From NCBI GenBank assembly GCA_947176505.1, contig CAMWQW010000006.1:1-64000 (forward strand): a stretch of DNA of 64,000 nt, read 5' to 3'. The notes under the pieces were generated by a model, which saw only the letters and a list, made by a program, of their open reading frames with translations, was not told where the DNA came from and made no database searches. Positions 45,148 to 64,000 of this stretch are shown piece after piece; within the stretch, counting starts at the first letter, position 1; every line of letters starts with the position of its first letter. Source of the DNA: an uncultured Lachnospiraceae bacterium. GTDB taxonomy: Bacteria > Bacillota > Clostridia > Lachnospirales > Lachnospiraceae. Both the position numbers and the translations under genes were made by a program.

Positions 45148-45197
45148 GAGGTAAAAAATTAAAAATATATTAATAGATATATAGAATAAACACAAAA

Positions 45198-45233
45198 AAG
45201 AACCTCCGACCGTAAATCAGAGGCTCTTTCTAC
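45198..45233 (-). repeat. copy 2 of a 36-bp perfect direct repeat; on the minus strand it forms a 9-bp stem hairpin (with G-U pairs) plus a U6 tract, i.e. a terminator-like element
   Basis: aagaacctccgaccgtaaatcagaggctctttctac is identical to 46016-46051; minus-strand RNA AGAGCCUCU-loop-GGAGGUUCU-UUUUUU. Confidence 0.6.
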
Positions 45234-45931: not shown

Positions 45932-46015
45932 CCCATTCCTTCTTACATATAATTAAATCAGCCAGATATCGTTTCTCTTCGGATTTTCATCATAACATAA
46001 AGGCAATAGATAGTA

Positions 46016-46051
46016 AAGAACCTCCGACCGTAAATCAGAGGCTCTTTCTAC
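46016..46051 (-). repeat. copy 1 of the 36-bp direct repeat, 45 nt downstream of the 1811-aa gene stop (operon-end hairpin; weaker U-tract)
   Basis: Identical 36-mer to 45198-45233. Confidence 0.6.
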
Positions 46052-46095: not shown

Positions 46096-49000
46096 TCACT
46101 CGAGCAGGAACAATCTGGCACGATTCAACGATACCGTTCCAAATCCATCTATCTTGTACGTCTTTCCGTTTCTGATAAACTCAGACTCTACGAGAACAAA
46201 GATTCCCGCATTGTTGGTCTTGTCATCCGTAAGGCTCCTAAGTGAAACCACCGGTGCTTTAATCCGGTATACTTTACCCGGAAGTAAACCTATCTGGTCA
46301 GGATTCTGCGGGTCAGCCGCTGTCACAGGTACAAGCTTATTATCTGTAACCGTCCAGATTTCCGAACCGAACGGCGTCGCTTTAACAGTCTTGTCACCGA
46401 TGACAAACTCCTGCGTTCCGGCATCATCCTCATAATAGAAGCTGACCGTCACATTCTTGTTTGCTCCGATATTGCTATCTGCAAACTTAAAGTATACATC
46501 CACGGTATTGTCCAGAATTCCCTCGGTGTCATCGTCCGCCGTGTCTCTCCACTCCTGATCAAAGGGAACGGCAATGCTCTTCATCGGTGCGGAATTCTGC
46601 GCAAATCCGGACACAATAGCGACGTCCGAACCGTGTACGCCCGCACTGTACGCTGCCATAAGCGCATTGACAAAGAACTTACATTCGTCAACTCCCATTG
46701 CATTAGCAGCCACCTCACCTTCGCCGTATATGTATGGATATTCCGACTGCGCCAAATAGACCACATTGCCCTTACTGTAGCAATAATAGTTGTTCCGGGC
46801 GTCTTTTGGTGAAATACCGTATGCCGTATCTCTATTTCCGCCAAAGGTAAGCCATGTTGTTACATAAGCTTCTGTATACTCGCTCTTTAAGTTATTCTCA
46901 AAATTCAGCAGATACTCGGAAGCTCGCAGTCCTGTTCCGTTCTCAGCCATTTTCTCCGCAAAGGCAAAAGAATTGCCCGTCATCTCATACGGATAGTAAA
47001 GGATACTTCCTTCATTAATTTTATCCGCCCTTATTCCCGCACGCCGAGGTTCGTACATGCCCGCATTCAAACCTGCATATCTATGATACTGATTTGCCGC
47101 TCCCAAGCTGACAAAAGTTCTTCCTGAAGACCAGCCTAAACTCTCCGTCGCAAGTCCCGCGCTGTTGCCGCTCTTATTCTGACTGCATACGAGCAGACTC
47201 CTGCCCTCATTGATGTAATCGGCAAACGCCACACTATCCACAGTAACACCGTCATCCACAGTCAACACTACAACATCCCACAGATTCAGGTACTTAGGGT
47301 TCTTAGTTAAATTATCAGCTAATTCTTCAGGCGTAACCGTTTCAAATTCAAAAGCGAGATGTGAACTCGACTCCGCGTCTTTGAGTAATCTTGCCAGCAG
47401 AGAGTCATCCTTCTTCTTGTACATCGCTTCCAAATCAATATAATAGTCGCCTTTACTCTTTGTCACCTGCAGCACACGTATCTCTTCTTCATAAGAGCTG
47501 ACCAGTTCAAAATAGCCCTGCACGCTGGCTCGTCTGTATGGATTGCCACTATCCGTTACTTCTAACTTCCAAGGAATGATACCCGGACCCATACCGTTAA
47601 TCGTGACATCAATGACGTTGCCTTCATTGACATAGGCGCCGAATTCTTCGCCAAGCTCCTCCTCCGTACCGAAGATACCGTCATAATTCATATCTGCATA
47701 TAAGTGCATGGTTGTATCGCCGAAATAATCTTCGCCTCTGTTATTCTTAATCTGAAAAGCAATCCTGCCATGGTATTCTTCATTTTCATCCAAGACAAGC
47801 CGCTGCACCATGCTCACTCCGGAACCGCTGTCCGCGTCCTCGTTCACCAACTCAATCCGCGGCTTGGAAGTCTTCATTCTAGCCATAAATCCGGCATTCG
47901 ACATCGTATCCGATACGGTAAAAATACTGTCCTTATATTCTTCAACGGAAACCGCAGCCAACAGGAAATTATACATCACCGTATCTTCGGCAACATACTT
48001 CGTATTAATCGTATCTCTTGACGCGCCGCGGGCTGTTGCATCCGTGAAAAAGTCATTTTCAACCACGATCGGATATCCTGCCCGAAGATACTCTAACAAA
48101 TCCATCATCTTCTGCGATGTAATATCGTTGCTGTCATAACGGCTGTCACCAGTTACATCACCTAAATGATATACTTTACCATTCAATGACTCATCATTAT
48201 AAACCGCTCTTCTTGGCTGTCTGTCACCCAGATTCAGATTCTGCCCGTCAAGACCGATAAATATCATATCATAAGCGCCGTTAACATCTTCCCACTCACC
48301 GTTAAATTCCACTACGGATTTCACGTCTGTAGAAATGCCAAACTGCTTCTTGCTGTATAGAATCTGTTTACCCGTCTTCATGGCATCTGTCTTCCAGACA
48401 AGCTTTGTGTTCCCTTTGCTGTCCTCCTCTGTATGCAAATCGGAGATGATGGCTCCTGAAGTAAGATCAATGTTCGCCGTAGGCTGCAATTCCAGAATCG
48501 TCAGGTCATCAAATTCTCCCATAATACCTACGGAAAAATTAATGATATACTGAATCGCTCTGGCTTTGCTGACCTCAAAGGAAATTTGGTCATACTCCGC
48601 CAACGTAGTATTTTCTGCTTCAATCGCTGCTAATACATCACTGAATCCGGCTTTTGCCTTGAAATCGTCAAAAAACGCCGCAAAGTCATCACTGACAAGC
48701 ATTTCGTCATTAATGATATATATATTTTGGTTTACATAATTGTATCCATTGTCATCCTTATCCGGATAATCATCAGCCTTTAGCGTCATTTCTATGTTAG
48801 CCATCAAATCCGTGCCCGTATTGATAGCCTCAAAATAACCTGCCAAATCACGCTTTAATAACGCCTGCGCCAATAACTGATAATTCGTTCCGGCATATTT
48901 GTCAGTATCTGTCTCCTCCGCAATCGCGTAATCTACAATAATCGGTGTCAGCTCATCAGCCGCGCGGCTTAAAATTGCACTAACTATCCCCTCTCCCATG

Positions 49001-51516
49001 TCATTCGCGTCACCTAAAGGCGAATCGCCTTCAACATGCTGAATATAGCTGACCGATAATGACGGATTAAGAAACATATTCTGTCCGCTTTCCAGATAGA
49101 TTAAATCTGCCGCATTCACCATATCGGATGTCACTTCATCGGCTCTCACTGTCTGTACTTCAATCTGAAAAGCACTGTTCGCATTATCTCCGCCTGCAAG
49201 CGAACTGAATACATACTGCTTCAACCAGTTATTGGTTGTCTGACATCTGAAATAAACCGGCGCATTATAGACTCCTATCACCAAGTCGCTGTCTTTGCCT
49301 GTCTCAGCCAATTTGTAGTTACCTAAGCCGGGACCGACGTAGATAAATGTCGAATCAGGTGTCAATGTGGTGCTAAACAGACTGATTCCGTCTTCCGTCT
49401 CCGCCATATCTTCATTCAACATATAATCAGTAGACATGATATCATCTGCCCCGGCAAGTTCAGCCAGCTCATCGTCTGTCATCCGCTCAAACGAAAGCAC
49501 ATAGTACATCGTACCGCTCTCTTCGGAAGGCTCCTCTGTCTGAAGTGTATCATCCGTCGATGGCGTATTTGTATCACCTGTCGATGGCGCATTTGTGTCA
49601 TCCGTCGATGGCGTATTTGTGTCATCTGTCGATGGTGCATTTGTGTCATCTGTCGGTGGTGTGCTCGTATCATCCGTTGATGGTGTATTTATATCGGGTG
49701 TTGGCTGTTCTGGTGTCTGCGGCGGTTGTTCTGATGTTGATGTATCATCATCGGGTGTCTCCATATCAGAATCCGTTGGTGTACCTGCCACTAATCTTCT
49801 CCACTCACCTGCAAACACTGTGTTCTTGCTTAGGTCCAACAAAACTGCATCAGACATCACGCCGACGGAACTCGTCTCCGGTGCTGGTTGTGTTGGATCC
49901 GACTGTTCCGGCTGTTCTGGTGTTGGCGGCTGTTCTGGTGTTGGCGGTTGCTCTGGTGTTTCTGTACCGCTTCCCGGATTTTGCCCATCCCCCGGATTTG
50001 CAGGATCAATATCCGGAATAATCGGATTTATATCTGGCTGCTCCGTCGTACCATTATTGTCATTGTTATCATTGTTATCATTATTGTTATTATCATTACT
50101 ACTGTTATTATTATTGCTGTCATTGCTCGAATTGTCTACCCAGTCCTTAAAAACCTCACCGACCGTTCCCTGATAAACGTATCTGTCATCACTTTCATCA
50201 TATGTATAGATATCAAGCTCGTCAGAATAACCATTCGGTCCATTCATTGCATTGATTTCACTACTCACGGAAGCCTTATATGCAGGAGTGCCTTCCGGCA
50301 TGTTAGCATATTCTTCCAATGTTATCGCGTAAAATTTACCATTATCTTCATTATAAAAATAGACGAATCTTCCCAACGCTCCCGGGTTTTTCAAGGTTGA
50401 GCTTTTCTGTCCGCTGGACCAGACGAAATCATATCCTGCCTTGTCTTCTCCATCAACATATTTAAGGTAGGTGCCGCGGAAAATCCCGTCCGCCATATCA
50501 GCTTTATTGTTGCCGGATGTAATCTGATAAGTATCGTCTACCGTCACTTCCTGATTCGGAAACAACAGAGTCCAGCCATCCGCCTCCGCAACATTATGTA
50601 CTCCAAGATAAGCTTCTTTATACTGAATTCCCGGAAATGATGTAAATGAGGACTCCGGCACTAACAAGTTGAGAAAATCTTCTCTGCTCGCATAATGACG
50701 GAAAACCGGATTGCTCTTATATGCCTCTGCCAAATCATCCGCAAACGGAGCTTTTCCGCCTGCCAGATACCCCATTGAACCCGTAGTAAAAGAAAACCTT
50801 GTAGGGCTTGTATCCCCTGAACCTGTCGTACCGCCCGAACCAGCCGGCGCGTCGCAATACACTTCAGATGGAACAATATCCAGTATCTTATACGGATTAT
50901 CTTCTCCATGGTCTTCTACAATCTTGCCGATTCCCGCAAAAGATTCTTTCGCCATGGCTTCCGCCGGACGTAGATGTTGTACAACAGGATAAACTACTAT
51001 CGTCACCGCAAGAAGCATTGCGACACCGGACGCCGCCTTCTTCCACTTTTTTCTCTTTGAACCGAGAATAGGCTTCTCGTTGGTACTCTCAAGCATATAC
51101 TCGGGAATCTCGCCTTTTTTAATCTGTTCAATCTCTTTTTCTTTGGCAAGCGCTTCCCAATCCAGCTCCCCGGGATTAATTTTCCGGTGCTTTATGTGCG
51201 AAATAATCTGTGCTCTGGAAGCGTCCGCGCTCTTGAGCGATACAGATTCGTTCGCCGCCATATCAGATTCTTGCAATAAATCTGGTTTCTCCGGAGTATC
51301 AGACAACTTCGTATAATCGGACTCATTGAGGGTATCAGACGTTTTAGGAGCAGCAGCCTTCTCTGCCCCTTCATCATCTGCACGTTTTCTGCCCTTGTAT
51401 CTCAAGATACCAAAAACTCCCGTCGCCACTGCTGCAATCGAAGCGATTACAATAAGAACAATGTTTCTATTTTGTTTTTTCTTATTCCTTTTTATGCCTC
51501 TTCTCTTCTTTTTCAT
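46096..51516 (-). CDS. giant membrane-anchored protein of unknown function (about 1806 aa) with PT-rich and N/D-rich low-complexity linkers
   Basis: Continuous ORF. Start MKKKRRGIKRNKKK 5 codons inside the track's TTG start. Hydrophobic segments IVLIVIASIAAVATGVFGIL and AASGVAMLLAVTIVVYPVV. Linker runs NNNNSSNDNNNNDNNDNNDNN, PEQPPTPEQPPTPEQPEQ and (T/S)DDTN(A/T)PS x6. Recurring D-hhhh-xx-G-Q-N motifs (DMIFIGLDGQNLNLG, DLIYLESGQNMFLNPS, DVVVLTVDDGVTVDS). Confidence 0.6.
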   Translation of the reverse strand: MKKKRRGIKRNKKKQNRNIVLIVIASIAAVATGVFGILRYKGRKRADDEGAEKAAAPKTSDTLNESDYTKLSDTPEKPDLLQESDMAANESVSLKSADASRAQIISHIKHRKINPGELDWEALAKEKEIEQIKKGEIPEYMLESTNEKPILGSKRKKWKKAASGVAMLLAVTIVVYPVVQHLRPAEAMAKESFAGIGKIVEDHGEDNPYKILDIVPSEVYCDAPAGSGGTTGSGDTSPTRFSFTTGSMGYLAGGKAPFADDLAEAYKSNPVFRHYASREDFLNLLVPESSFTSFPGIQYKEAYLGVHNVAEADGWTLLFPNQEVTVDDTYQITSGNNKADMADGIFRGTYLKYVDGEDKAGYDFVWSSGQKSSTLKNPGALGRFVYFYNEDNGKFYAITLEEYANMPEGTPAYKASVSSEINAMNGPNGYSDELDIYTYDESDDRYVYQGTVGEVFKDWVDNSSNDSNNNNSSNDNNNNDNNDNNDNNGTTEQPDINPIIPDIDPANPGDGQNPGSGTETPEQPPTPEQPPTPEQPEQSDPTQPAPETSSVGVMSDAVLLDLSKNTVFAGEWRRLVAGTPTDSDMETPDDDTSTSEQPPQTPEQPTPDINTPSTDDTSTPPTDDTNAPSTDDTNTPSTDDTNAPSTGDTNTPSTDDTLQTEEPSEESGTMYYVLSFERMTDDELAELAGADDIMSTDYMLNEDMAETEDGISLFSTTLTPDSTFIYVGPGLGNYKLAETGKDSDLVIGVYNAPVYFRCQTTNNWLKQYVFSSLAGGDNANSAFQIEVQTVRADEVTSDMVNAADLIYLESGQNMFLNPSLSVSYIQHVEGDSPLGDANDMGEGIVSAILSRAADELTPIIVDYAIAEETDTDKYAGTNYQLLAQALLKRDLAGYFEAINTGTDLMANIEMTLKADDYPDKDDNGYNYVNQNIYIINDEMLVSDDFAAFFDDFKAKAGFSDVLAAIEAENTTLAEYDQISFEVSKARAIQYIINFSVGIMGEFDDLTILELQPTANIDLTSGAIISDLHTEEDSKGNTKLVWKTDAMKTGKQILYSKKQFGISTDVKSVVEFNGEWEDVNGAYDMIFIGLDGQNLNLGDRQPRRAVYNDESLNGKVYHLGDVTGDSRYDSNDITSQKMMDLLEYLRAGYPIVVENDFFTDATARGASRDTINTKYVAEDTVMYNFLLAAVSVEEYKDSIFTVSDTMSNAGFMARMKTSKPRIELVNEDADSGSGVSMVQRLVLDENEEYHGRIAFQIKNNRGEDYFGDTTMHLYADMNYDGIFGTEEELGEEFGAYVNEGNVIDVTINGMGPGIIPWKLEVTDSGNPYRRASVQGYFELVSSYEEEIRVLQVTKSKGDYYIDLEAMYKKKDDSLLARLLKDAESSSHLAFEFETVTPEELADNLTKNPKYLNLWDVVVLTVDDGVTVDSVAFADYINEGRSLLVCSQNKSGNSAGLATESLGWSSGRTFVSLGAANQYHRYAGLNAGMYEPRRAGIRADKINEGSILYYPYEMTGNSFAFAEKMAENGTGLRASEYLLNFENNLKSEYTEAYVTTWLTFGGNRDTAYGISPKDARNNYYCYSKGNVVYLAQSEYPYIYGEGEVAANAMGVDECKFFVNALMAAYSAGVHGSDVAIVSGFAQNSAPMKSIAVPFDQEWRDTADDDTEGILDNTVDVYFKFADSNIGANKNVTVSFYYEDDAGTQEFVIGDKTVKATPFGSEIWTVTDNKLVPVTAADPQNPDQIGLLPGKVYRIKAPVVSLRSLTDDKTNNAGIFVLVESEFIRNGKTYKIDGFGTVSLNRARLFLLE
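49545..49700 (-). repeat. 24-bp in-frame tandem repeats (about 6 copies) encoding (T/S)DDTN(A/T)PS
   Basis: tcatccgtcgatggcgtatttgtg-type units reiterated with point variants. Confidence 0.8.
49890..50140 (-). repeat. 18-bp repeats encoding PEQPPT x3, and AAT/GAT-rich microsatellite-like repeats encoding the N/D/S run
   Basis: ggctgttctggtgttggc x3 at about 49900-49955; attgttatcattgttatcattattgttattatc at about 50040-50140. Confidence 0.75.
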
Positions 51517-51546
51517 AATTAATCGCCCCAATACTTGCTTAAAAGA

Positions 51547-54500
51547 TTACTGTTTCGTCCACTGTGTTCCGTTAGATGTACAGGTCCATGTGCCATACTC
51601 TACGCCGGAAGTATACCCATTTACTAATTTAAGTGTATAGGTATCAGTACTTGCATCATAAGTATATTCCTTTTTAATGCCTCCCCAAGAATTCTGGGCA
51701 TTCTCCCCATATGTATCCGTTGCAAAGAAGTACTCTGTGACAGATTCACTATAACTGCCCGAAATATTTGGGAATCCGCTCTCAGACGGAAGCGGCGCTT
51801 CCAGCATACACTGACTGCCATTATACGTAAATCCAATGCGTGTACCCCAAATTGCCGTATCAACTCCTGTGTTGCTTCCTGCCTTTGTCCGGTTCCACTT
51901 TGCGCCGTCCCAGCTAAATGTTCCATAGTTATACACAATCTTCTTGCGTGGATTATTGGTCAGAATTTCCCTGATTATCTCTATCGTATATGCACTGCCG
52001 GATTTACTGCATTTCACAATACATTTCTCGATAAGCGCATCGCTGCTGCCATCCTTACTAAAGGATATCAACTGCCAGTTATTGAGCGTACTGTTGTTGT
52101 CAAACGCCCCTATCGGGAAATCTGCATCCGACGGCGTCGGGAAATAAGTCTCATACTGCTTATTATCCTTTGTAAACTCCAGATTCGTCTGAATATTCTC
52201 TATCTTCGTCTCTTCAAGTCCCACTCTGGTCCATTCAAGCTGTCCCATACTTGCTTCATACTTGCCGTAAATATGGGTGATAATCTGTCTACCGTTGATT
52301 TCCATAGATGACAATGTAATCCGGTACTTATCCTGTCCTAAATATTCACACATAACCGTGGCATTATCTATCGTCCCCCGCCACTGTCCATCCTTAGAGT
52401 ACGACGTAAAATTGTATATAATTTCTTGTTTCGTATCACTCCTTAAGTCAAATGGAAATGCTCTGTCCGACGGCACTGGAAAATTTGTCCATCTTTCCTC
52501 TCCGTTCACGTTTGGCAACTGCATATTTAACCCCATGTCAATTCTCAAGTTAATAACACAATCCCACTGCTTATAATAATATGTATCGTAATCTCCGGGC
52601 ACATTCTTATAGATAACATTATCTCCCGTATAAGCTCCTGCTCTGATATCCGGATTATTTGCATAGACAAATCCGGGCACAATATGATACATTCCACACG
52701 CTTCCTGCATCTCCTGCGCATTGCTGTTTGTCAGATTAGTCACCGTCGGATTAGACCCGGGCTGAAATACAATCTTTCCAAAACGATTTTGACCGGTGTT
52801 GTTTCCTTTATCATTATAATTGCCATCTCTGTCCGGCGATATCGGGAGCGCCCCAATTCTTGTTGTTCCGTTACGGTTATCCGCATATTCCTCCGTATCA
52901 TGCGCATACCCATAAACTCTCTTCCACCGACCGTTTTCATCCTCTTTGTACACCGTAAATCTAATGTTGTTAAGGACAGCTTCTCTCAATATGTTGATTG
53001 CACCAGCATCGGCAATCTCAATCATTCCCCCGAGAGGATTATTATTGGGTGTTGATAAAAATGAAAAATGCTCATAGCTTTCTTTCTCATCATTCGGATA
53101 CGTGACCCCATTAATCTTCACAGCTACAGACGGTTGATTCAATACTGCATAATAATATTCATCCGCATCAAACATCGTACCGATATACTTTCCGTTATCG
53201 TCACATTTGTTCAAATATTCTGTTTTAATCTCTTCTTTACTTGCCTCAGTCCTACTCCCTTTTGGTCTTGGATCAAGTACTTGGAAATAAATCTCATAAG
53301 ACTTCCTGTGATCTAATCCGAATGCATCGGGAGAAAAACGCTCGTTTGCGCCCTCTGTAAAATAGACCATTACATAATCATTCTGGCATCCGACTGTCCC
53401 TGCTTCTCTGACACGGACACAGAAAACATAACGAGAATGGTCTGTTTTTAAAGATGTACGCATATAGTCAAAAATTCCCGGGTCATTATCCGTACCGAAC
53501 TTAAGCTCCGATCCGATAAACTTCGCCCCGTTGTCGCCCTCGGTCACTCTGAGGATGAGCGTTCCTGTTACCGCTCCATAGCTCTTACGAAGAGACAAAT
53601 CAGACGTCGCCTCGATTTCAATTTCCTCACCTTTTTTCGCTGTCGATTTTATCTTAACTTCTGCTTCTCCCGTATCAGATGTCACAATCTCAGCAGGTCC
53701 TCTTACAATTCTCCATCTCGTTGCCGCAAGGTCATGATCCTTTGTCTCGTCATCCGTAAGGCAGGAATGCGCTTCACAGGATCTGCCTAACATATATCCC
53801 ACTGCACTACCGTTCACCGTAACCGTACTTCCGGCTTTGATGGTCGTTGACGCACAACTTAAGTCAACGCTGTTCACACGCTTGACATTAACCTGTACCG
53901 TCTTGGCTACCTTATCATTCTGATTGGCATACTCTTCATTTACGCGGGAAACTCTCACCAGAAAACTCTTGCGTGTCTCGTTCGTACCGATAGTTAACTG
54001 CCCGTCAGCCGAAACGGACGACGTCGTTGTTCCGGTATCCACCAGCTCCCACTTAACCGCCTGATCATCAGAATTGGTATCCACCTGCGTCTTGTCTGCA
54101 AGATTAAAGCTGTCCCCCGGCTCTAACACAATATCTCTCACTGTCGTAATCGTGAACTCGTTCGCCTTCTTCATCGGCTCAATATCAATCTTATTGAGTG
54201 CAATCCGGTTACGCACGGTTACATTATTGGAAGTGGTATACTCTTTATTGCCGTTCTGGAATGTCATGGAAATCATGACTACCCTGTTTTCTTCAAACTG
54301 GGAAATATCAATATGTAATTCTTTGACATGCTGCGCGAGAATCGCCCTGTTCGTATCATTAAACACCGGCTCCGGATTTGTATCATCTATCACGGTATCG
54401 CTCGTATTGAAATAAATCGTCTGCGTGTCCTTACTCCACTCGAAACGATAACTGTCATTATCATTATTGCTGCCCTTTTTATTGACTACTACCAATATTT

Positions 54501-54771
54501 TCTCATCAGGCTCACTGCTGAACTCGGAATCTTTCAGAACAAGTTCTGTCCCGTTGCCATAACTTATACTGTCCGTCGTATCTATAATCACGTCAGAAAT
54601 CTGATTTAAAGCGAGCTGCGCCTCCTGTTGTAACATGATGTCGGTGTTAGCCGATGTATAACTTCTGGATCCTACCACAATGAAACCACAGACTGCCAGC
54701 GTCACAATTGCTAGTATTGCTATCGCTATGATCAATTCCACCAATGTAAAACCTTTCTGATTTTTTCTCAT
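51547..54771 (-). CDS. giant prepilin-type protein (1074 aa) with an N-terminal class III signal and N-methylation motif
   Basis: MRKNQKG|FTLVELIIAIAILAIVTLAV is the classic prepilin cleavage and N-methyl motif (G-1, F+1, E+5). It is followed by about 1000 aa with Big_2-like stretches (LSCASTTIKAGSTVTVNGSAV) and many W/Y/N/G-rich beta-type segments. Confidence 0.6.
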   Translation of the reverse strand: MRKNQKGFTLVELIIAIAILAIVTLAVCGFIVVGSRSYTSANTDIMLQQEAQLALNQISDVIIDTTDSISYGNGTELVLKDSEFSSEPDEKILVVVNKKGSNNDNDSYRFEWSKDTQTIYFNTSDTVIDDTNPEPVFNDTNRAILAQHVKELHIDISQFEENRVVMISMTFQNGNKEYTTSNNVTVRNRIALNKIDIEPMKKANEFTITTVRDIVLEPGDSFNLADKTQVDTNSDDQAVKWELVDTGTTTSSVSADGQLTIGTNETRKSFLVRVSRVNEEYANQNDKVAKTVQVNVKRVNSVDLSCASTTIKAGSTVTVNGSAVGYMLGRSCEAHSCLTDDETKDHDLAATRWRIVRGPAEIVTSDTGEAEVKIKSTAKKGEEIEIEATSDLSLRKSYGAVTGTLILRVTEGDNGAKFIGSELKFGTDNDPGIFDYMRTSLKTDHSRYVFCVRVREAGTVGCQNDYVMVYFTEGANERFSPDAFGLDHRKSYEIYFQVLDPRPKGSRTEASKEEIKTEYLNKCDDNGKYIGTMFDADEYYYAVLNQPSVAVKINGVTYPNDEKESYEHFSFLSTPNNNPLGGMIEIADAGAINILREAVLNNIRFTVYKEDENGRWKRVYGYAHDTEEYADNRNGTTRIGALPISPDRDGNYNDKGNNTGQNRFGKIVFQPGSNPTVTNLTNSNAQEMQEACGMYHIVPGFVYANNPDIRAGAYTGDNVIYKNVPGDYDTYYYKQWDCVINLRIDMGLNMQLPNVNGEERWTNFPVPSDRAFPFDLRSDTKQEIIYNFTSYSKDGQWRGTIDNATVMCEYLGQDKYRITLSSMEINGRQIITHIYGKYEASMGQLEWTRVGLEETKIENIQTNLEFTKDNKQYETYFPTPSDADFPIGAFDNNSTLNNWQLISFSKDGSSDALIEKCIVKCSKSGSAYTIEIIREILTNNPRKKIVYNYGTFSWDGAKWNRTKAGSNTGVDTAIWGTRIGFTYNGSQCMLEAPLPSESGFPNISGSYSESVTEYFFATDTYGENAQNSWGGIKKEYTYDASTDTYTLKLVNGYTSGVEYGTWTCTSNGTQWTKQ

Positions 54772-54875: not shown

Positions 54876-55418
54876 CTACGGTATTGGAAGCAACTCCATC
54901 GTCGTCTTACCGGTCAGTCTCTCCAGATGGATATGATAATTCTTGCTGCCGCCGCGCACATAAATCTCCCACACATTTGTGGCAGTGGCGCCACTGTCCA
55001 AGCTCTCCAGAAACGAGCCTGAGCTTCTGTTAAAATATATCTCCCATGCGTCATCTCTTTGCGGTAAATCATCTCCGCCGTCCGTAGATCCGACCATGCA
55101 CCTTCGCGCCCCGATTTTCTCGGCACCGTTGTTGCCGGTTGTCCAACTGCCGGCTTCCAATGTCTGCAATTCACTGAATACCGTTCCGGTGTCATCTCTG
55201 TAGAGAAGCAGTCTCACATTGCCTCGTCCTGCGCTCATTGTCGCAATCTTACATTCCGAGATGGCACCTATAATGTCATTGGTGCAGGTTCTTGCATTGG
55301 CGCTGAAAACAAGCCCGACAGACAATGCCGCTGTCGTGAGAACCGCCGCTATGATTGCAATGACAATGATTAATTCCACAATAGAAAAACCACTGTTATT
55401 TTTCTCCATCCTGCGCAT
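54876..55418 (-). CDS. minor pilin/pseudopilin (180 aa)
   Basis: MRRMEKNNSG|FSIVELIIVIAIIAAVLTTA prepilin motif. Confidence 0.65.
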   Translation of the reverse strand: MRRMEKNNSGFSIVELIIVIAIIAAVLTTAALSVGLVFSANARTCTNDIIGAISECKIATMSAGRGNVRLLLYRDDTGTVFSELQTLEAGSWTTGNNGAEKIGARRCMVGSTDGGDDLPQRDDAWEIYFNRSSGSFLESLDSGATATNVWEIYVRGGSKNYHIHLERLTGKTTMELLPIP

Positions 55419-55439: not shown

Positions 55440-58130
55440 CTATTTCTTAATCCAGTTCTCGTACCTTACAATCTCTGAATAATCAATATTGAGATTGCCG
55501 GCTTCATCTACGTCTGCCTCCTCATAACCGCTCTTAATCATACCAGAACCGTTACAAAGAATATTCGCCGGAACGTTAACGTCTCCCGCCACTTCAGATT
55601 GTGCCTGAAGAACGGCATACACGCCCTCACCGTCTTTCTTGATTGTCGCATTATTCGAGACGGTAATCTTACCGCTTGCGATAATCAGACCTTGGAAATC
55701 TTTGGTGACTTCCACATCTCCTATGGCAACCACAAGTCTTAACTTGGAATCTGTCACTCTATATACGTTGCCCGGCTCTTTCTTGCTGTCTACCAATACT
55801 GCCTTCAAAATATTTGCGCCTTCACCGGTCGTAAACTCCACCTTGCCATGATTGTCGTCAAGATAATCCTGCAATCCTTCCGTACTCTCAGGATCCGTCG
55901 GATTGGTATTAAGCTTAACCAGATTCTCAAACACGTTCTCTTCCGTGCCCGGATCCTCTTCCAACAGGTTTTTCATCAGATTCTCATAACTTAAGATAAT
56001 CTCATCCGGCTCTTTTAACTCATTCTCACTGACAATCGTTTCCACATTGTCAGATACTTCTTCATAATCCCCTGCTTCTCCTGCCGGCGGATTCTCCTCG
56101 TCATCACCATCGCCTTCCGACGGATTATTCTCAACGCTTGATAAAAGTTTGACAATATTTTGCCCTTCCGGAGATGTCATGATTGCATCACCGTTTCCTG
56201 CATCTGTGGCGGATACCATACTGTTACCTACCACCGTATATCCCTGCACGTTGCCTTTCAGTCTGATACCACCCGAAACATACTGATTAAAGTAATTGTC
56301 CAGACTTGCTTTATTGCTGTTGACATTATAATACTGCGTGAAATATTTCGCAGCATTAACACTGTCCATCACCAGATACAGGTACACCTGCTCTTTTTCC
56401 GGCTTATAAAGGAATCTGACACCCGAACCGTTCGCAACTGCCTTTTGGTTCAATGCCGTTATGACAGCTACCGGATTCGTCAAATCTACAGCGCCCAAAT
56501 CAGTCGCCTTAATATCCGGTATTCCATAACTGCTCAGCTTCCCGCCGCCTAACTTTGTCACTTCCCTGCTGGCATCCACAATTCTGAAAACTTCATCATC
56601 ATCATCGGCTCCGCCCTCCGGCGTTGATGTACCATCCCCTGCTCCCGGTGTCTGATAATCGGCAAGACTCTTTAACATTTCACTCCATGTCTCAAAAGAT
56701 ACCGGATTCTGTCCGACCACAGGTGTTCCGTTCAAAGTACCCACACACTCCGGCGGAACAAGATAGGCAATCTGATTACTCTTGACGGAAATAGACTCTC
56801 CCATCAGCACATGAGGCATCCCGTTGTCTTTCTCATCATCCTTAGCTAAGCTGACGTATGCCCTTCCCGCAAGCTGCAAAGTAGTAAGCCCTGTCAAATC
56901 CACAGACGTATTCTTTCCGTTAATCACAATAGCGCTGCTCGTGTTCGCCGGATTAACCCTCTGCAGTTCTTTGACAACCTTGCCGTCACTGTCTAACACA
57001 ACATGCCCGTCGTCATCAAGCTTCGGCGCTTCCTCTTCATGAGTCGTCTCATTCGTATTGCCGTAGCCGTAATACTGTCCTGCCAGCGACACGTTACTGC
57101 CCTTGCCGGACAAGATTAAATCATTTGCTATATACATTCTTCCGGAAACATCTAAATGCCCGCCATTTAACGCCAGTCCGTTCGCATAGACATTCGTCCG
57201 GAATCCTTTACTTCCCTGCGTTACATTTCTTATGATTAATTCTGCATCCTGATTGACCATGCTCGTAAAGATAGGATCGTTACCGACAACGATATCCCCG
57301 CCCGAAATAACATAGGACGCGTCCTCAATCAGCACATGACTGTTTCTGGCAATCTGGATACCGCCTTTGCTGTCTTCATCGACTCCGCCGTAAATATTGC
57401 CGTTTATTGCAATCGTATTGGCGTCCATCTCAATTCCCTCATCGCCGATTAATACATACGGATACAATCTGTCAATGGTTCCAGCCTGTGTAAAACGCAG
57501 CTTCGGCACATCAATAGCTATATCCGTATTGATGATGGACAGATAATCATTGGTATCGTAATACTCGATACATATATTCTGAAGTACCATGCTTCCGTAG
57601 CCGTTTACGGCATTTGCGGCTTTAAATTCAGCTACGGCGTTATCCCACGTATCGTTCACGATATATCCGTCACCATTCGGGTCGCTCTCATCCCACCATT
57701 CAGAATCCACGAAACCTTTCAGCATATCCTTGTCGTAACGGTTCGGAGACCCTGTCGGAGTTGTTCCGAACCTGCTCTCAACTGCCGCAATATACGCCGT
57801 AATGAAATAGCTCTCACGGTTCGCATCCGTCCCCAGCGCATCCCAATTGCTCACCACTTCCTGATACGCCTCATTGATTGCTTTCGAGACCTCACGCTTC
57901 ACACCAGCCTCAATCTGCTCCACCACCGTCTCTGCGGAATAAAAGCTGTTCTTCACCTTCAAGTCATTGATTTTAATACGATAATTAAGATAAGCCGCCC
58001 ACAGGATCGTAGTCGCTAGTACGCCTATTAATGCCATGGCGATAATCACGATTACAATCGCCGAACCTCTGTCGTCCCTCTTATTCAGTTTTTCTCGAAG
58101 CAGATTTTTGCTCTTGCACAGCTTTTTCAT
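55440..58130 (-). CDS. large PilX-N-like pilus protein (896 aa)
   Basis: The N-terminus DDRGSAIVIVIIAMALIGVLATTILWAAY resembles the PilX N-terminal motif (G-S, no Glu+5); a long G/N/D-rich beta region follows. Confidence 0.5.
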   Translation of the reverse strand: MKKLCKSKNLLREKLNKRDDRGSAIVIVIIAMALIGVLATTILWAAYLNYRIKINDLKVKNSFYSAETVVEQIEAGVKREVSKAINEAYQEVVSNWDALGTDANRESYFITAYIAAVESRFGTTPTGSPNRYDKDMLKGFVDSEWWDESDPNGDGYIVNDTWDNAVAEFKAANAVNGYGSMVLQNICIEYYDTNDYLSIINTDIAIDVPKLRFTQAGTIDRLYPYVLIGDEGIEMDANTIAINGNIYGGVDEDSKGGIQIARNSHVLIEDASYVISGGDIVVGNDPIFTSMVNQDAELIIRNVTQGSKGFRTNVYANGLALNGGHLDVSGRMYIANDLILSGKGSNVSLAGQYYGYGNTNETTHEEEAPKLDDDGHVVLDSDGKVVKELQRVNPANTSSAIVINGKNTSVDLTGLTTLQLAGRAYVSLAKDDEKDNGMPHVLMGESISVKSNQIAYLVPPECVGTLNGTPVVGQNPVSFETWSEMLKSLADYQTPGAGDGTSTPEGGADDDDEVFRIVDASREVTKLGGGKLSSYGIPDIKATDLGAVDLTNPVAVITALNQKAVANGSGVRFLYKPEKEQVYLYLVMDSVNAAKYFTQYYNVNSNKASLDNYFNQYVSGGIRLKGNVQGYTVVGNSMVSATDAGNGDAIMTSPEGQNIVKLLSSVENNPSEGDGDDEENPPAGEAGDYEEVSDNVETIVSENELKEPDEIILSYENLMKNLLEEDPGTEENVFENLVKLNTNPTDPESTEGLQDYLDDNHGKVEFTTGEGANILKAVLVDSKKEPGNVYRVTDSKLRLVVAIGDVEVTKDFQGLIIASGKITVSNNATIKKDGEGVYAVLQAQSEVAGDVNVPANILCNGSGMIKSGYEEADVDEAGNLNIDYSEIVRYENWIKK

Positions 58131-58244: not shown

Positions 58245-59726
58245 TCACTGATTCATATTGGTAATGGTGGCAAGTCTGTGCACTTCGTCATTGTCTTCAA
58301 AGTTGCTTTCCGTAAAATGCTTCGCCGCTCCGGTCTGATAAACTGTAATTTCTACATCATAAATAATATTTGTTACTTTATCACTTGTCGTATTTCCCGA
58401 AAAAGTACACTGGTTCACATTGTGGGAAATATTCGCATTATATGTATAAAGCACTCCGCTGATTAAGTCTCTCTCTCCCGTAGCCTGATTTTTAATCATA
58501 TTGGTATCCGCATTGGTTCTGAAAGTCAGATTGCCATCCATCGAAGTATCCGCCCCAACATCGACAAGCGCGCGGTAGGCGGTCTCCTTCGCCCATAGCT
58601 CGGCATCCGTCAAATCAGGTGCAATCACATTCGCATCCACATCGACTACCGACCGTATCTGCTTCGCCAGCGTGATGCTTTTCAATAACGGTTGTTCTTT
58701 ATCGCACAGTTTTGCAGCATCCTTAATCTTAAATTGTATGTTGTCTACTAAGCCTGATTTGTAAATAGGGTAGTAAAAAAGATAAAAATTACCGCTTGAA
58801 AAAGTGCGGGTGACATCGACTACCTTGCCGCCCTCCGAACCGTCATATCCGTTGCTTGTGTAAGTATAGGTAGTCTCGCCGTATGTGTAACTACAGTCAT
58901 ATGTAAAATTAATTGTAGCTTTACACCGATCATTGCCGCCGTCTTCCAGTACAATTTCTATCGTCCTCTTTGTGACAATATCTTCTAATTTCAAATCGTC
59001 CCAATCATCCGGAAGCGTTCCGCCAACTGCCGCAATATCATCTGCAATCTGCAGCTTTACATCTTTTAAGACGGCTTCGCTTAATTTCTTGCTTTCATGA
59101 TAACTGCTGTCCGTCTTCATTGCATCCTCGTCACCACCGCCGTTTATTTCAGCTACGCTTCCGATTTCGGCGTAGAACTTGCCGTTAAACTCTCTGTCAT
59201 GTACACCCCCGGGGTTATTGACTGTCCCGCTGGCATCTATCTTTTTTGAATTAGCACCGTAAGTAGATGCGTCCAATCTAATCAGCGCATCGTACTCCGC
59301 GCCCTGCATCTTGAGATTCTCAATGCCGAAATAATATATTTCGTCACCCTCTACATGTCCGTCCATGTCTTCCGTCAAGTCTCTGACACCGCCCTGAATC
59401 ATGCTGCTATTCACAATATAGAAGCCATCCGACGGGTAGTGGAAAACGTCTCCGCTTACACCTTCCGGCGGTTCAAACTGCGCACTCACTTCCTCCAGCG
59501 TATATGCCTTGAGTCCCTCCATGATATCCTGTGCTACCGTAGTCGCACGCAGTGTCTGTCTGGACTTCACATTGATTCTTGTGGATGTGACAAACATATG
59601 TAACAGCGGTGCAACGATAATCGCAAGAATCGTCACCGCAATCAACAGCTCAACCAAGGAAAAACCTGCGTTTGGGTTCTTTCTATATGCTTTATTCAGT
59701 TGCCCTTTTTGCGTACTACTATTCAT
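58245..59726 (-). CDS. minor pilin, PilV/PilW-like (493 aa)
   Basis: 20-aa leader, then NAG|FSLVELLIAVTILAIIVAPLL prepilin motif. Confidence 0.6.
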   Translation of the reverse strand: MNSSTQKGQLNKAYRKNPNAGFSLVELLIAVTILAIIVAPLLHMFVTSTRINVKSRQTLRATTVAQDIMEGLKAYTLEEVSAQFEPPEGVSGDVFHYPSDGFYIVNSSMIQGGVRDLTEDMDGHVEGDEIYYFGIENLKMQGAEYDALIRLDASTYGANSKKIDASGTVNNPGGVHDREFNGKFYAEIGSVAEINGGGDEDAMKTDSSYHESKKLSEAVLKDVKLQIADDIAAVGGTLPDDWDDLKLEDIVTKRTIEIVLEDGGNDRCKATINFTYDCSYTYGETTYTYTSNGYDGSEGGKVVDVTRTFSSGNFYLFYYPIYKSGLVDNIQFKIKDAAKLCDKEQPLLKSITLAKQIRSVVDVDANVIAPDLTDAELWAKETAYRALVDVGADTSMDGNLTFRTNADTNMIKNQATGERDLISGVLYTYNANISHNVNQCTFSGNTTSDKVTNIIYDVEITVYQTGAAKHFTESNFEDNDEVHRLATITNMNQ

Positions 59727-59812: not shown

Positions 59813-60655
59813 TTAATCTTCCTCGTCCTCGTCTTCTTCATCGCCGTCTTCGGCTGCATCATTATTCTCTATATCTTCCAGTCCGCGCTCACCGTAGAGT
59901 TCTATGGAGCCAAAGATATTATCCGTGCCTAACAGAACAGAGGAAAAGTTCGGTACCACATATTCCTTGCCCGGCTGTCCCGGAATACAGTACATGTCAA
60001 CACTGGTCGTGCCCGTGAGAAGTCCCGTAGACTCGTCATATGATACCGTTAGGTTATCGATACTCATTCTGTTATCCTGAACACTAATATTTTTAATACC
60101 TCTTTTTAATCCCTCATAGGACACAAGGTAATTAAACGTCACATTACGCGCCATCAGTATAGACGGCATGTTCTCTGTACCCAGTCCGTTGCCGCTTGGG
60201 TCCGCCGCAGAAGCTGAAACATCGTCGCTGATGCCCTCCTGTGCCTCATACTCCTCTATCTCATCAATCTCGTAAGTATGACTCACATCTTCTTCCTCGC
60301 TCTGCAGAACAACCGGCTCGCATGCACTGATACTGATACTGCTGATTAACATCGGAGAAATCAATTCCTGACTGATGGCGAGCAGAATACTGTCTTCCTC
60401 TCTGACATCTATCGGAAATTCCTTGAAAATCGCATCCATTTCCCGATTCATGCTCTCCGTCTCCGCAATATAAGAATCTTTATTCTCCATCTTGGAACTC
60501 AGGTCATTAATTCTTGCCTGAAGCTGCACATTCTCCTGTTCCAAAGCGTCAGCTTTCTCCATCGTCGGCTGAAATACAAAGAAATAGGAGCAGACTGCCG
60601 CCAAAATCCCAATAAAGCCTACAAGGAGTAATATATCTCTTTTAGAAACTTTCAT
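59813..60655 (-). CDS. pilO: type IV pilus assembly protein PilO-like
   Basis: 280 aa; single N-terminal TM then a coiled coil (ADALEQENVQLQARINDLSSKMEN); acidic C-terminal tail. Confidence 0.55.
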   Translation of the reverse strand: MKVSKRDILLLVGFIGILAAVCSYFFVFQPTMEKADALEQENVQLQARINDLSSKMENKDSYIAETESMNREMDAIFKEFPIDVREEDSILLAISQELISPMLISSISISACEPVVLQSEEEDVSHTYEIDEIEEYEAQEGISDDVSASAADPSGNGLGTENMPSILMARNVTFNYLVSYEGLKRGIKNISVQDNRMSIDNLTVSYDESTGLLTGTTSVDMYCIPGQPGKEYVVPNFSSVLLGTDNIFGSIELYGERGLEDIENNDAAEDGDEEDEDEED

Positions 60656-60667
60656 GCTCTCATCCCC

Positions 60668-62308
60668 CTACTCTTCCGTGTTTGATGCACTGTCTGCATC
60701 CGCCTCATCATCCGTATCACTCAAGGAAGGCGCATGTACATCCCTGTAGAGTGCCGCCACTGAGAAGTTCACGGAGATTGTTCCTGCTTCCTCGTCAATC
60801 TCCTCCACTACGGAATTGACCGTCACGCTGGTTGGAATCAAGCTGTCAAAAGAACGGAGCTGTTCGACGGCTGCCGCCGCTTCACTCTTGCTGCTCACAT
60901 CCATATTAATCGCTACACCGTCTATCGTACTTGTAAAAGAAACTACATGGACATCACTGGGCATTTTGCTCTCAAGCTCTTCCAGAAATTCTACAAGTTC
61001 TTCGTTCCTGTTTTCCGTCTGTCCATACATCGCCGTCACTAAATTATAAGATGCCAACGTCGCTGTATATTCATTATAAATAGGAATAATCGCTTCCAGA
61101 TCGGAATTCTGCGCTTTTAACTCCATATTCTGCTTCTCTAATCCCATATACCGCAGAATGGAAACTGCCGCCAGCGCAATTGCTATGGCAAGTCCCAAGC
61201 CCAAAATCGCATAAGCAATCGGCGCAGGATTGATTCCGCCTTTTCCGCCTGCTGCCTTGTCTTTACCTTTTGCCTTCTCTGCGTCTTTCTTGAATCCTAG
61301 CGGAGCCGCAGCCGCACCTACGCTGGCAACATATTCACCATAATACTGTGTTCTGAAACTTTTCTCCAGATTCCATCCCGGTATCTGACGCAATACCTCG
61401 ACCGGAAGGTTCAAATCTCTCGCAAGCAGTTCCGCCAAACCTTTAATATTGGCGCCAAGACCTGTAATATAGACAACCTCGACAGATGCATCCGAGTTAT
61501 GAGATGTATAGTAATCCACAACCCTGCTGATGCCTGATGTGAGCGGCGCAATCGCTTCTACCATCTCGGGTGAACCGATACAGTCATTCATCGACACCAC
61601 TTCCATTGCCGCCTGAACTGAATCAGCTTCAGCCCATCTCTTGGAATCTATGACTGTTTGTATCGCTTCCTCCGCACCGTATGCCACATTTCTAACAAAT
61701 GCAAGTCTGGCATCATGAATCGCCATCACAAGCGAAGAACGTTCATCAATCTTAATCACAAGGCTCGTGCCCTGTGCATGTTTATCTTTTGCCACCTGAA
61801 ATACACTGTTGCCGGCGTAATCGATTGCGGCAAGTTCCAGCTTCAATGCTTTTGCCAAATCATAATATCCGTTAAGGAGCGCACTCGGCGCCGCCAATAC
61901 AAGCAGTTTATACTGCTGCGTACCTTTTGGATCACCCAAAACTCCCAAAATGCTGTATGCAAGCTGATACTGACTTAAATCTACAGGAAAATAATCGGAG
62001 GCATTGGCATTCACCACATCCGCAATACGATTCTCCTTCACATACGGAATCGTGACCTCGCGACTCGCAATCCTTCCTGAAGTGATGGTAAACACCACCT
62101 GTTTTGTCTTAATCTTTCTCTCTGTAAGCGCGGTAGTTAACGTCTCTATGTATTCCGGCGTCGGCGTAAGCACACCGTCATTGATAACCCCTTCCGCAGT
62201 CGGTATCGTAAAAGATCTGTATACCTTATGTGTTTTAGCCTTATAATCAACCTCGCAGACCCTTGTCAACGAGTATCCGATCTCTATACTGATCGCTTTA
62301 GCAGCCAT
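60668..62308 (-). CDS. pilMN: PilM-PilN fusion protein
   Basis: 546 aa; N-terminal actin-like PilM (ISIEIGYSLTRVCEV...), a TM segment (IAYAILGLGLAIAIALAAVSIL), and a C-terminal PilN-like region. Confidence 0.7.
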   Translation of the reverse strand: MAAKAISIEIGYSLTRVCEVDYKAKTHKVYRSFTIPTAEGVINDGVLTPTPEYIETLTTALTERKIKTKQVVFTITSGRIASREVTIPYVKENRIADVVNANASDYFPVDLSQYQLAYSILGVLGDPKGTQQYKLLVLAAPSALLNGYYDLAKALKLELAAIDYAGNSVFQVAKDKHAQGTSLVIKIDERSSLVMAIHDARLAFVRNVAYGAEEAIQTVIDSKRWAEADSVQAAMEVVSMNDCIGSPEMVEAIAPLTSGISRVVDYYTSHNSDASVEVVYITGLGANIKGLAELLARDLNLPVEVLRQIPGWNLEKSFRTQYYGEYVASVGAAAAPLGFKKDAEKAKGKDKAAGGKGGINPAPIAYAILGLGLAIAIALAAVSILRYMGLEKQNMELKAQNSDLEAIIPIYNEYTATLASYNLVTAMYGQTENRNEELVEFLEELESKMPSDVHVVSFTSTIDGVAINMDVSSKSEAAAAVEQLRSFDSLIPTSVTVNSVVEEIDEEAGTISVNFSVAALYRDVHAPSLSDTDDEADADSASNTEE

Positions 62309-62486
62309 TAATCATAGTCTCCTTTCGACTTCCCCAGTGTATTTATATTGAAAAAAACAGATAGGCTTGCCCCGCACATGCTTTTCTTATTTTCTTCCGT
62401 AAAGTTTGTTTCTGTACGCATTTGCACTTTTATTAAGCCACATATGTTATTGTTGAACGCATTATATTCTTACATACAAGTCGGTC

Positions 62487-63239
62487 TCAGAACTGTCCCA
62501 AATACCATGTAAGCATCTGATTGCCCCACATCGCTGCAATAAAAACGCCTGCTGAAAGATATGGTCCCATTGCAAGCACATGGTCTTCATTACTCACCTT
62601 CATGCGAATCACATGAATGAATGCACCTAAAATGCAGCCTAATAAAAATGCAATAATAATCAGTTTCCATCCAAGAAATAATCCGCAGGCTGCCATCAGC
62701 TTCACATCACCACCACCGATTGCCCGTCCTTTGGAGGCATAATATAAAATTGCAAGTACCGCACTGACGGCTAAGAAGCCAATCAGGTAGCTAAGGATAT
62801 GATGATAGTCCAATGCTGCCCGAATCAGCCCCAGCGCCAGTATAAACAGATTGATTCCAAATGGAATCTCATAAGTTCTAAAATCAATCACGCTCAGTAC
62901 AAGGAGCGCAGACACAAGTAAACAGTAGAGTAGGGAGTCTACGTTTACCCCATGAATACATACGATCATCACGTATAAGATTCCGTTCACTGCCTCAATC
63001 AGAGGATACTGGACGGAGAGCTTTGCCCCACAAAAGCGGCATTTTCCTCGCAAAAACAAATAACTGAACAGTGGAAACATATCATACCACTTCAGTTGTT
63101 TGCCACACGACATACAGTGCGACCTTGTCTTCACGATATCTTCATGCTCCGGAATACGGTAAACGCAAACGTTTAAGAAGCTGCCGATTACGATTCCGAA
63201 GAAAAATATAATGATGTAAAATATAATGTCTACGAGCAT
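62487..63239 (-). CDS. pilD: prepilin peptidase (A24 family) PilD
   Basis: 250 aa; N-terminal Cys-rich zinc site (CMSCGKQLKWYD...CRFCGAKL) and polytopic TM. Confidence 0.9.
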   Translation of the reverse strand: MLVDIIFYIIIFFFGIVIGSFLNVCVYRIPEHEDIVKTRSHCMSCGKQLKWYDMFPLFSYLFLRGKCRFCGAKLSVQYPLIEAVNGILYVMIVCIHGVNVDSLLYCLLVSALLVLSVIDFRTYEIPFGINLFILALGLIRAALDYHHILSYLIGFLAVSAVLAILYYASKGRAIGGGDVKLMAACGLFLGWKLIIIAFLLGCILGAFIHVIRMKVSNEDHVLAMGPYLSAGVFIAAMWGNQMLTWYLGQF

Positions 63240-63279
63240 GATTTATGTCCTTTGTAGGGGGAATTTGTTAAAGATTATC

Positions 63280-63342
63280 AAAATGGCGAAACGGAAGACC
63301 GTGCCTTATAGCATTGGAATTGCATGTAGGGGCACGCTTCCG
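63280..63342 (-). terminator. imperfect hairpin plus interrupted U-tract between the pilin gene and pilD (partial terminator or attenuator)
   Basis: cggaagCGTGCC...GGCACGgtcttccg inverted repeat, followed on the minus strand by UUUCGCCAUUUUG. Confidence 0.35.
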
Positions 63343-63420
63343 TTCGTCTAAATTATGTCACACTTATGTAGGTTTGGTGTGAGTGGTTGATGTTGGCTAG
63401 GCTAACATCAGGTTCCTGTA

Positions 63421-63879: not shown

Positions 63880-64000
63880 TTCTCTTTCTCCTTTTCCGCT
63901 TAAATTTATTATGATTGTTCCGGATATTCCCTGATACCCGTATCTTAAACACGGCAACTCCCCTACACACTGCCATGTTCAATTCTTATATACCGCCAGC

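Follow-up and report, generated by a model that had tools for sequence, protein, structure and literature searches.

A DUF5057-family protein encoded beside minor pilins: a candidate tip-adhesin-like accessory of monoderm type IV pili

A large gene at the end of a pilus operon

The last gene of a type IV pilus operon in an uncultured Lachnospiraceae bacterium encodes a very large protein of the family DUF5057, and we describe here a computational analysis of this gene, its product and its relatives. The gene lies on a 64,000-nucleotide (nt) stretch of DNA (positions 1 to 64,000 of contig CAMWQW010000006.1, assembly GCA_947176505.1; hereafter the window), where its coding sequence occupies 46096..51516 of the minus strand, with the stop codon at 46096-46098. 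Read from its ATG, the product has 1806 amino acids (aa; MKKKRRG...), and an alternative TTG start at 51531 gives a form of 1811 aa (46096..51531). An initial annotation of this DNA had paired the coordinates of the ATG form with the length of the TTG form; it had rightly named the open reading frame (ORF) the largest gene of the window, the runner-up being an ORF of 1074 aa. The predicted product has a mass of about 180 kDa, an isoelectric point of 4.15 for the mature protein and 5 Cys. As the best reading of the evidence set out below, we regard it as an exported, non-pilin, pilus-associated adhesin or scaffold that would be analogous, not homologous, to PilC/PilY1/MshQ.

The gene closes the operon, as had been proposed. 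Only 30 nt separate it from the gene upstream, and a terminator-like hairpin (46015..46049) follows about 50 nt past the stop codon; these elements and all the pilus genes lie on the minus strand. The gene directly upstream encodes a 1074-aa prepilin (51547..54771) with the motif G|FTLVE and weak GspJ/PilV-type matches. Farther upstream lie a 180-aa minor prepilin (54876..55418; G|FSIVE), an 896-aa protein (55440..58130) and a 493-aa minor prepilin (58245..59726; G|FSLVE) with weak PilV/ComGE/GspI-type matches. The 896-aa protein carries RG|SAIVI and is pilin-like without Glu5, and is therefore taken as a PilK/GspK-type minor pilin-like protein. Its end, IVRYENWIKK, is nearly invariant over 61 loci, even where the proteins are only about 35% identical, and this conservation suggests that the PilK-like protein has a functional C-terminal strand of its own. 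The remaining pilus genes (59813..63957) encode a 280-aa bitopic protein in the PilN/O position, a PilM-like protein, a prepilin peptidase and a 178-aa major-type pilin. Pfam scans of the 896-aa and 280-aa neighbours at relaxed thresholds returned nothing useful. For minor prepilins, those of 1074 and 493 aa are of unusual size (homologues reach 1285 aa); their C-termini often end in W-x-K, and they are probably modular pilins whose C-terminal domains match no assigned family.

The family, which the initial annotation could not assign from the sequence alone, is given by Pfam: DUF5057 (PF16480), with a cut-off of 27.9 bits, matches aa 1130-1407 at 82.4 bits (E 5.7e-23) and is the sole Pfam assignment. 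Relatives score up to 210 bits against the same profile, and source records name homologues 'DUF5057 domain-containing protein'. A scan of the protein against NCBIfam yielded no model and a single, spurious EutB match. S-layer, CotH and glycosyl hydrolase identities were rejected because no such profile matches; clear homology to an unrelated family of this kind was not found, and linkage to pilus genes recurs in other genomes.

A full-length homologue search was flooded by low-complexity words and gave 16 matches. Rerun with the low-complexity linkers removed, word-indexed searches found more than 170 close relatives, all of 1500-1950 aa, and those with a source name come from metagenome-assembled genomes of Lachnospiraceae or Eubacterium. 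An exhaustive profile search of 1.84 billion representatives matched 1470 clusters at E ≤ 1e-3 and 614 at E ≤ 1e-30, the family's clusters (more than 1400) being counted at 50% identity. The proteins of nearly all matched clusters are 1200-2300 aa long, and their C-terminal portion is the homologous one. In locus L079 (8560-10001), a 1183-aa DUF5057 protein (P0293) is cut by an assembly gap (a run of N), and the true gene begins about 1.4 kb farther upstream and encodes a signal peptide and a CBM26-like module; members of 'about 1200 residues' may therefore in some cases be assembly artefacts. DUF5057 occurs mostly in gut and rumen Lachnospiraceae, and when a member of 25% identity served as the seed, the search extended to Eubacterium, Vallitalea and Paenibacillus.

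Synteny with the minor pilins of type IV pili is kept over about 60 species-level genomes. At the ORF level, 57 of the 63 loci have a large prepilin with the motif G|F[TS]xxE immediately upstream of the DUF5057 gene, at a median distance of about 50 nt. The others comprise short contigs, artefacts of start-codon choice, a single G|LTLVE variant and the Paenibacillus locus. The order prepilin, PilK-like protein, prepilin, large prepilin, DUF5057 is found in all GTDB loci with enough upstream flank. Distant members also lie in type IV pilus loci, with differing genes downstream: ABC-2/LytTR/MBOAT genes in one case, a PilB ATPase gene in one, and a response regulator and kinase (a two-component system) in one. 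In Paenibacillus, the DUF5057 gene sits between pilB-pilT-pilC-pilA-pilD-pilM-pilO and three minor pilin genes. The linkage, whose recurrence in other genomes the initial annotation had proposed as a check, holds in the reverse direction as well. With the PilK-like protein as bait, 79 metagenome loci were collected (25-88% identity), of which 48 have at least 6 kb of downstream sequence, and a DUF5057 homologue lies downstream on the same strand in 48 of these 48.

Domain architecture, export and the C-terminal peptide

From AlphaFold2 (AF2) models, we read the architecture as a signal region, a first alpha/beta domain (A) split by an inserted folded domain and the linkers, a second alpha/beta domain (B), an immunoglobulin (Ig)-like sandwich, a third alpha/beta domain (C) and a C-terminal sandwich. 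The model of aa 1000-1806, built on a 61-sequence alignment, reached a predicted local distance difference test (pLDDT) score of 86.5 and a predicted template modelling score of 0.89; in that of aa 185-1000, the ordered parts exceed a pLDDT of 90 and the linkers are disordered. Domain A begins at aa 190-240 (50797..50949), with the conserved KESFxGIxxIVEEH...ILDIVP, and resumes at aa 670-1000 (48517..49509). Between its two parts lie a helical and beta-rich insert (aa 241-462; 50131..50796), predicted to be well folded and less conserved, and the linkers (aa 463-669; 49510..50130). Domain B (aa 1001-1234; 47815..48516) contains ILELQPTAN and an invariant loop rich in Asp, Asn and His. The Ig-like beta-sandwich (aa 1235-1342; 47491..47814) bears the EF-hand-like loop DMNYDGIFGTEE (aa 1275-1286, nt 47659-47694), and a loop of this type, DxNxDGxxxxxE, is present in 207 of 303 family sequences. 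Domain C (aa 1343-1630; 46627..47490) has the canonical ThuA/GATase1-like order of strands and helices in the model, and the C-terminal beta-sandwich region (aa 1631-1806; 46099..46626) ends in a family-wide peptide, LNRARLFLLE-COOH (nt 46099-46128). All of these features lie on the minus strand.

The three segments that had drawn attention to the protein are present, one in each alpha/beta domain: DLIYLESGQN at aa 804 (nt 49078-49107), DMIFIGLDGQN at aa 1083 (nt 48238-48270) and DVVVLTVDDG at aa 1414 (nt 47248-47277), preceded by the strands ILDIVP (211), ILELQP (1007) and VLQVTK (1348), respectively. Their shared D-hhhh-xxG pattern, which was chosen post hoc, occurs three times against 0.11 expected, and 1 of 5000 shuffles reached three. 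Internal repeats were sought by profile-profile comparison (hhalign) of A, B, C and the sandwiches, and none was significant (probability ≤ 1.5%). The repeated beta-alpha-beta units that had been proposed thus hold as members of one fold class, but not as detectable sequence repeats, and they are not recent duplicates.

The guess of a ThuA/GATase1-like fold is supported by the models. The structures closest to the alpha/beta model are ThuA-like and GIFT, and the fold is also common to amidotransferases, gamma-glutamyl peptidases and DJ-1/PfpI proteases. As modelled, the assignment is direct for domain A, the sole alpha/beta domain of its model, and for at least one of B and C, while the other would follow from its secondary-structure order and motif position. 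Neither the ThuA profile (PF06283) nor the GldG-type ABC_transp_aux profile (PF09822) matched at E ≤ 1, so that the fold alone is common to them. PDB sequence searches with the insert domain and the C-terminal profile gave chance matches only. A Foldseek comparison of the N-terminal model with the PDB returned nothing at E ≤ 0.001, and the insert at aa 241-462 had no significant structural match. Compared with ThuA, STM3548, OST48, IFT52 and GldG, the DUF5057 domains stand in tandem with Ig-like sandwiches in a 180-kDa protein that is apparently exported, and they have no conserved catalytic triad. A catalytic class I glutamine amidotransferase was rejected as an identity on two grounds: no GATase or Peptidase_C26 match in Pfam, and a Cys-His-Glu triad that is not conserved.

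The extreme low-complexity linkers reported initially (Asn/Asp run, PEQPPT and TDDTNxPS repeats) were recovered at aa 463-545 and aa 585-670 by entropy and composition, and they are encoded by genuine tandem DNA repeats, with units of 24 nt x 6.2 for TDDTNxPS, 18 nt x 2.9 for PEQPPT and 9/15 nt for the Asn/Asp run. Between these hypervariable linkers lies a small conserved island (…NT.F…W572 R.L575 V…; aa ~555-590, window 49750-49860), which is modelled with low confidence. Conservation among close relatives is uneven: identity is 61-70% in the C-terminal half, 39% in the insert, 17% in the linkers and 28% in the N-terminal extension. In some relatives the position of the insert is taken by a CBM26 module, and the Paenibacillus DUF5057 protein has a pAdhesive_15 match together with weak PKD/PPC-type matches.

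A hydropathy scan places hydrophobic segments at aa 19-37 and aa 161-179, which had been read as two hydrophobic anchors. The second segment, with AEAMA (aa 161-189; 50950..51036, minus strand), corresponds to a signal-peptide-like element found across the family, and cleavage by signal peptidase I is predicted to follow A189 (A-x-A|KESF). The first (nt 51406-51462) belongs to a clade-specific N-terminal extension (aa 1-160; 51037..51516, minus strand) that is absent or different in most members. Among 263 full-length members, 193 have a single N-terminal hydrophobic segment within the first 300 residues (in about the first 30 in most of those inspected), and 252 have no hydrophobic segment past residue 300. 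In the inspected members, small residues at -1/-3 are followed by a conserved start, (A/K)(D/E)(S/T)(L/F)xGI...ILE/DIVPD. The extra extension with a second hydrophobic segment is shared by 57 members, the present protein included, and is poorly conserved. Both segments therefore exist, but the second appears to be a family-wide Sec signal peptide and the first a peculiarity of one clade, which makes the anchoring part of the proposed surface role doubtful; the pilus-associated part is supported by synteny that is conserved, reciprocal and present in distant members too. The clade-specific extension (window 51037-51516) also bears a conserved INPGELDWEALAKEKE motif and, with the signal peptide downstream of it, makes for a 'frustrated' topology; if the signal peptide were cleaved, a separate basic membrane fragment of about 21 kDa would remain.

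A check for sortase-anchor motifs found no LPXTG in the protein, which ends in ...LFLLE. It has no class III signal peptide (G|[FM]xxxE) anywhere and no N_methyl match. With these motifs absent, identity as a type IV pilin or pseudopilin, or as a sortase substrate, was rejected. Pfam detected no cell-wall anchor domain (SLH, LysM, CWB) in it. The near-invariant C-terminus follows (L/M)-F-x-L-(D/E), a relaxed form of which is present in 289 of 303 sequences; these 289 have F at -4 in 272 cases, L at -2 in 281 and D or E at -1 in 251.

Comparison with known pilus proteins and rival explanations

For monoderm type IV pili, the question of which component confers adhesion is largely unsettled (PMC6916266), and so is the existence of a counterpart to the PilC/PilY1 tip adhesin, for which DUF5057 is a concrete candidate. 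In the accounts given by PMC7541494 and PMC8833165, PilC/PilY1 is a large non-pilin adhesin of the pilus tip that primes assembly and whose gene follows those of the core minor pilins; the latter account ties PilY1 function to calcium binding. A 2026 study, outside of whose scope clostridial-type pili lie, reported that the last ~10 residues of PilC/PilY1 complete the beta-sheet of the Glu5-less PilK, and predicted the same for the C-terminus of MshQ (PMC13533445). For GspK and CpaL, a strand acting in cis has been described. DUF5057 proteins and PilC/PilY1 are alike in several respects: both exceed 1000 aa, are non-pilin proteins with a Sec signal (predicted in DUF5057) and are encoded directly after core minor pilins that include a Glu5-less PilK-type protein, and both combine a conserved C-terminal part and a conserved extreme C-terminus with a variable N-terminal part and a loop of calcium-binding type. 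They differ in fold, which is a beta-propeller in PilC/PilY1 and, in the DUF5057 models, a series of GATase1/ThuA-like domains and Ig-like sandwiches. DUF5057 also differs in its host, a monoderm without secretin, in its 896-aa PilK-like partner with a conserved C-terminus of its own, and in an association with the pilus that is putative.

Other systems offer partial parallels. MshQ of the Vibrio cholerae MSHA pilus, a protein of about 1200 aa unrelated to PilY1 and encoded immediately downstream of pilIJK homologues, was proposed as a PilY1 counterpart from synteny and modelling (PMC13533445). The argument from synteny is of the same kind for DUF5057, while family and host envelope differ. 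In Caldicellulosiruptor, the tapirin genes stand directly after the pilus locus, and whether tapirins interact with the pilus is undetermined (bioRxiv 10.1101/614800). Like DUF5057 proteins, they are non-pilin proteins of Firmicutes from directly beyond a type IV pilus locus, and they bind substrate; they are limited to one genus, in contrast to the many DUF5057 clusters. Tapirins are unrelated to DUF5057 in sequence, much smaller and of a beta-helix-type fold. In Streptococcus sanguinis, PilB and PilC are modular minor pilins whose adhesive modules are displayed by the pilus (PMC8179133, PMC6916266). Those modules sit on true pilins with a class III signal peptide, whereas DUF5057 proteins have no prepilin motif; the likeness lies in the very large prepilins (1074 and 493 aa), probably modular, of the DUF5057 operon itself.

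Given that its gene comes right after the minor-pilin genes in every gut Firmicute genome examined, the DUF5057 protein is probably a pilus-associated adhesin in the role of PilY1/PilC. We are inclined, with some reserve, to accept this reading as a whole, namely that of an accessory protein, non-pilin and exported by Sec, that serves a monoderm type IV pilus as a tip adhesin as PilC/PilY1 does. The gene would be co-transcribed as the last of the minor-pilin module. The conserved C-terminal ~1100 residues, in which predicted GATase1/ThuA-like alpha/beta domains are interleaved with Ig-like sandwiches, one with an EF-hand-like loop, would most likely associate with the minor-pilin tip or initiation complex, and the less conserved insert, carried on flexible Pro/Thr and Asn/Asp linkers, would present a ligand-binding module. 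One possibility is that the invariant last ~10 residues (...LNRAxLFxL[D/E]-COOH) add a beta-strand to a minor pilin. The analysis establishes the family, the fold class, the features of an export signal, the place in the operon, the reciprocal co-occurrence, the conserved C-terminus and the variable adhesive or carbohydrate-binding modules of relatives; cleavage of the signal peptide, a physical tie to the pilus, location at the tip, adhesin function and strand addition are what we infer from it. A more specific proposal, which we advance tentatively and hold to be doubtful, is that DUF5057 is the missing PilC/PilY1 counterpart of clostridial-type pili, a structurally unrelated tip protein of GATase1/GIFT-like domains that would dock on the minor-pilin initiation complex through its C-terminal peptide, help to license assembly and carry exchangeable substrate-binding inserts (CBM26 in some members). 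Abundant gut Lachnospiraceae would, on that proposal, grab dietary polysaccharide or mucus by their pilus tips.

Several observations weigh against the adhesin reading or parts of it. The PilK-like protein, with a near-invariant C-terminus of its own, could itself provide the licensing strand in cis, in the manner of GspK and CpaL; no strand would then be needed from DUF5057, and strand addition is therefore just one docking possibility for it. The monomer model already has most of the C-terminal peptide paired within a hairpin, with lower confidence for its last residues only. The Paenibacillus member has no C-terminal motif and is divergently transcribed. DUF5057 resembles PilC/PilY1 neither in sequence by Pfam nor in fold, with no beta-propeller among the structural matches. 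The N-terminal extension of the clade studied here, with clusters of positive charge on either side of its hydrophobic segment, leaves the topology ambiguous. Most of the synteny evidence comes from Lachnospiraceae, in which gene order is also vertically inherited, and a literature search found zero papers that mention the family.

The same CBM26 and putative adhesive domains of relatives, with the signal peptide and flexible linkers of the protein, would also suit a cell-surface adhesin or substrate binder that is co-transcribed with the pilus genes and acts independently of the pilus, as is possible for tapirins, which set a precedent for a gene directly downstream of a pilus locus (bioRxiv 10.1101/614800). 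Such a protein would have to stay on the cell, which is hard to account for with no wall anchor in the present protein and no later transmembrane (TM) segment in 252 of 263 members. Its best-conserved part is the non-adhesive C-terminal core with the terminal peptide, and a linkage to minor pilins that is strict and reciprocal over distant clades and contexts would be difficult to account for if no physical or functional tie existed; we consider independent action unlikely. Strict co-occurrence with this type of pilus would also be in keeping with a structural role in the pilus machinery of the Gram-positive envelope, such as that of a scaffold leading the filament through the thick wall, in place of a passenger on the filament. 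The passage of pili through monoderm peptidoglycan is an open question (PMC6916266), IFT52 and OST48 use the GATase1-like/GIFT fold as a protein-protein scaffold, and the N-terminal hydrophobic segments could tether DUF5057 to the membrane. Most members, however, have only a cleavable-looking signal peptide, and variable CBM26 or adhesive modules and hypervariable linkers suit a surface ligand binder better. To our knowledge, the well-studied monoderm pili of S. sanguinis and C. difficile assemble without such a protein, which also counts against a scaffold, and we judge this role quite improbable.

The fold is shared with enzymes (amidotransferases, gamma-glutamyl peptidases, DJ-1/PfpI proteases) and with ThuA, and domain B holds a dense invariant cluster (D1090, N1107, H1117, D1120, D1128, D1131, E1153). 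Both would be in keeping with an extracellular enzyme with a catalytic GATase1-like domain, such as an amidase or hydrolase with cell wall, pilins or glycans as its substrate. We regard this as very unlikely, given that no catalytic GATase, Peptidase_C26 or DJ-1 profile matches and that the sole Cys in an elbow-like position, C1444 (LLVCSQ), is invariant among close relatives only and is not conserved in the 61-sequence alignment. ThuA-like and GIFT structures have no catalytic triad, which also counts against an enzyme. The two hydrophobic segments and the strongly positive N-terminus might, finally, indicate a two-pass membrane protein with a cytoplasmic body of 1600 residues (N-terminus in, TM1, external loop, TM2, C-terminus in). 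This is highly improbable: KRKKWKK just before TM2, followed by neutral or acidic sequence, would put the body outside the cell, most relatives have one N-terminal segment followed by an A-x-A site, and the Pro/Thr linkers, Ig-like sandwiches and very few Cys of the protein, like the CBM26 modules of its relatives, all point to the outside of the cell.

We rate the DUF5057 protein as a putative tip-adhesin-like accessory of monoderm type IV pili with a fold unrelated to the known ones, on a case that is purely computational and includes strong reciprocal genomic evidence. If this is true, a large domain of unknown function would gain a function. A rule proposed recently, by which a large protein whose gene follows pilIJK contributes its C-terminus to the tip complex, would then hold for Gram-positive bacteria and for an unrelated fold as well. 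Pilus-mediated substrate capture, for example of starch via CBM26, would also be indicated in major gut commensals.

The operon end and the downstream region

The terminator-like hairpin at the end of the operon is one of two copies of a perfect 35-nt hairpin, AGAAAGAGCCTCTGATTTACGGTCGGAGGTTCTTT, found at 45197-45231 and 46015-46049 on the minus strand (0 expected by chance). Between the copies lies a cassette of about 780 bp that holds a small ORF and a weak PIN-domain ORF, apparently with a frameshift, and the PIN ORF is 72% identical to one at the equivalent place in locus L005. The PIN cassette looks like an insertion that duplicated the terminator of the pilus operon.

No ABC transporter is encoded in the pilus operon of the window. 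In locus L074 (15039-17467), an ABC-2 transporter (ATPase and permease) and a LytTR protein are encoded 23 nt after the DUF5057 gene, an arrangement that recalls GldG-type ABC partners and is not conserved elsewhere.

Downstream of the DUF5057 gene, the window continues with the small PIN-like cassette, followed by topA, codY and the flagellar operon that includes flgB, in a layout typical of Firmicutes. The distance from DUF5057 to topA ranges from 0.1 to more than 5 kb among species, and a few downstream flanks are without topA. This variation in size marks the interval between the DUF5057 stop codon and topA as a variable insertion site beside an otherwise rigid topA-codY-flgB segment; loci with a variable interval are L010, L013, L014, L025, L029, L033-L035, L038, L040-L042, L062 and L063.

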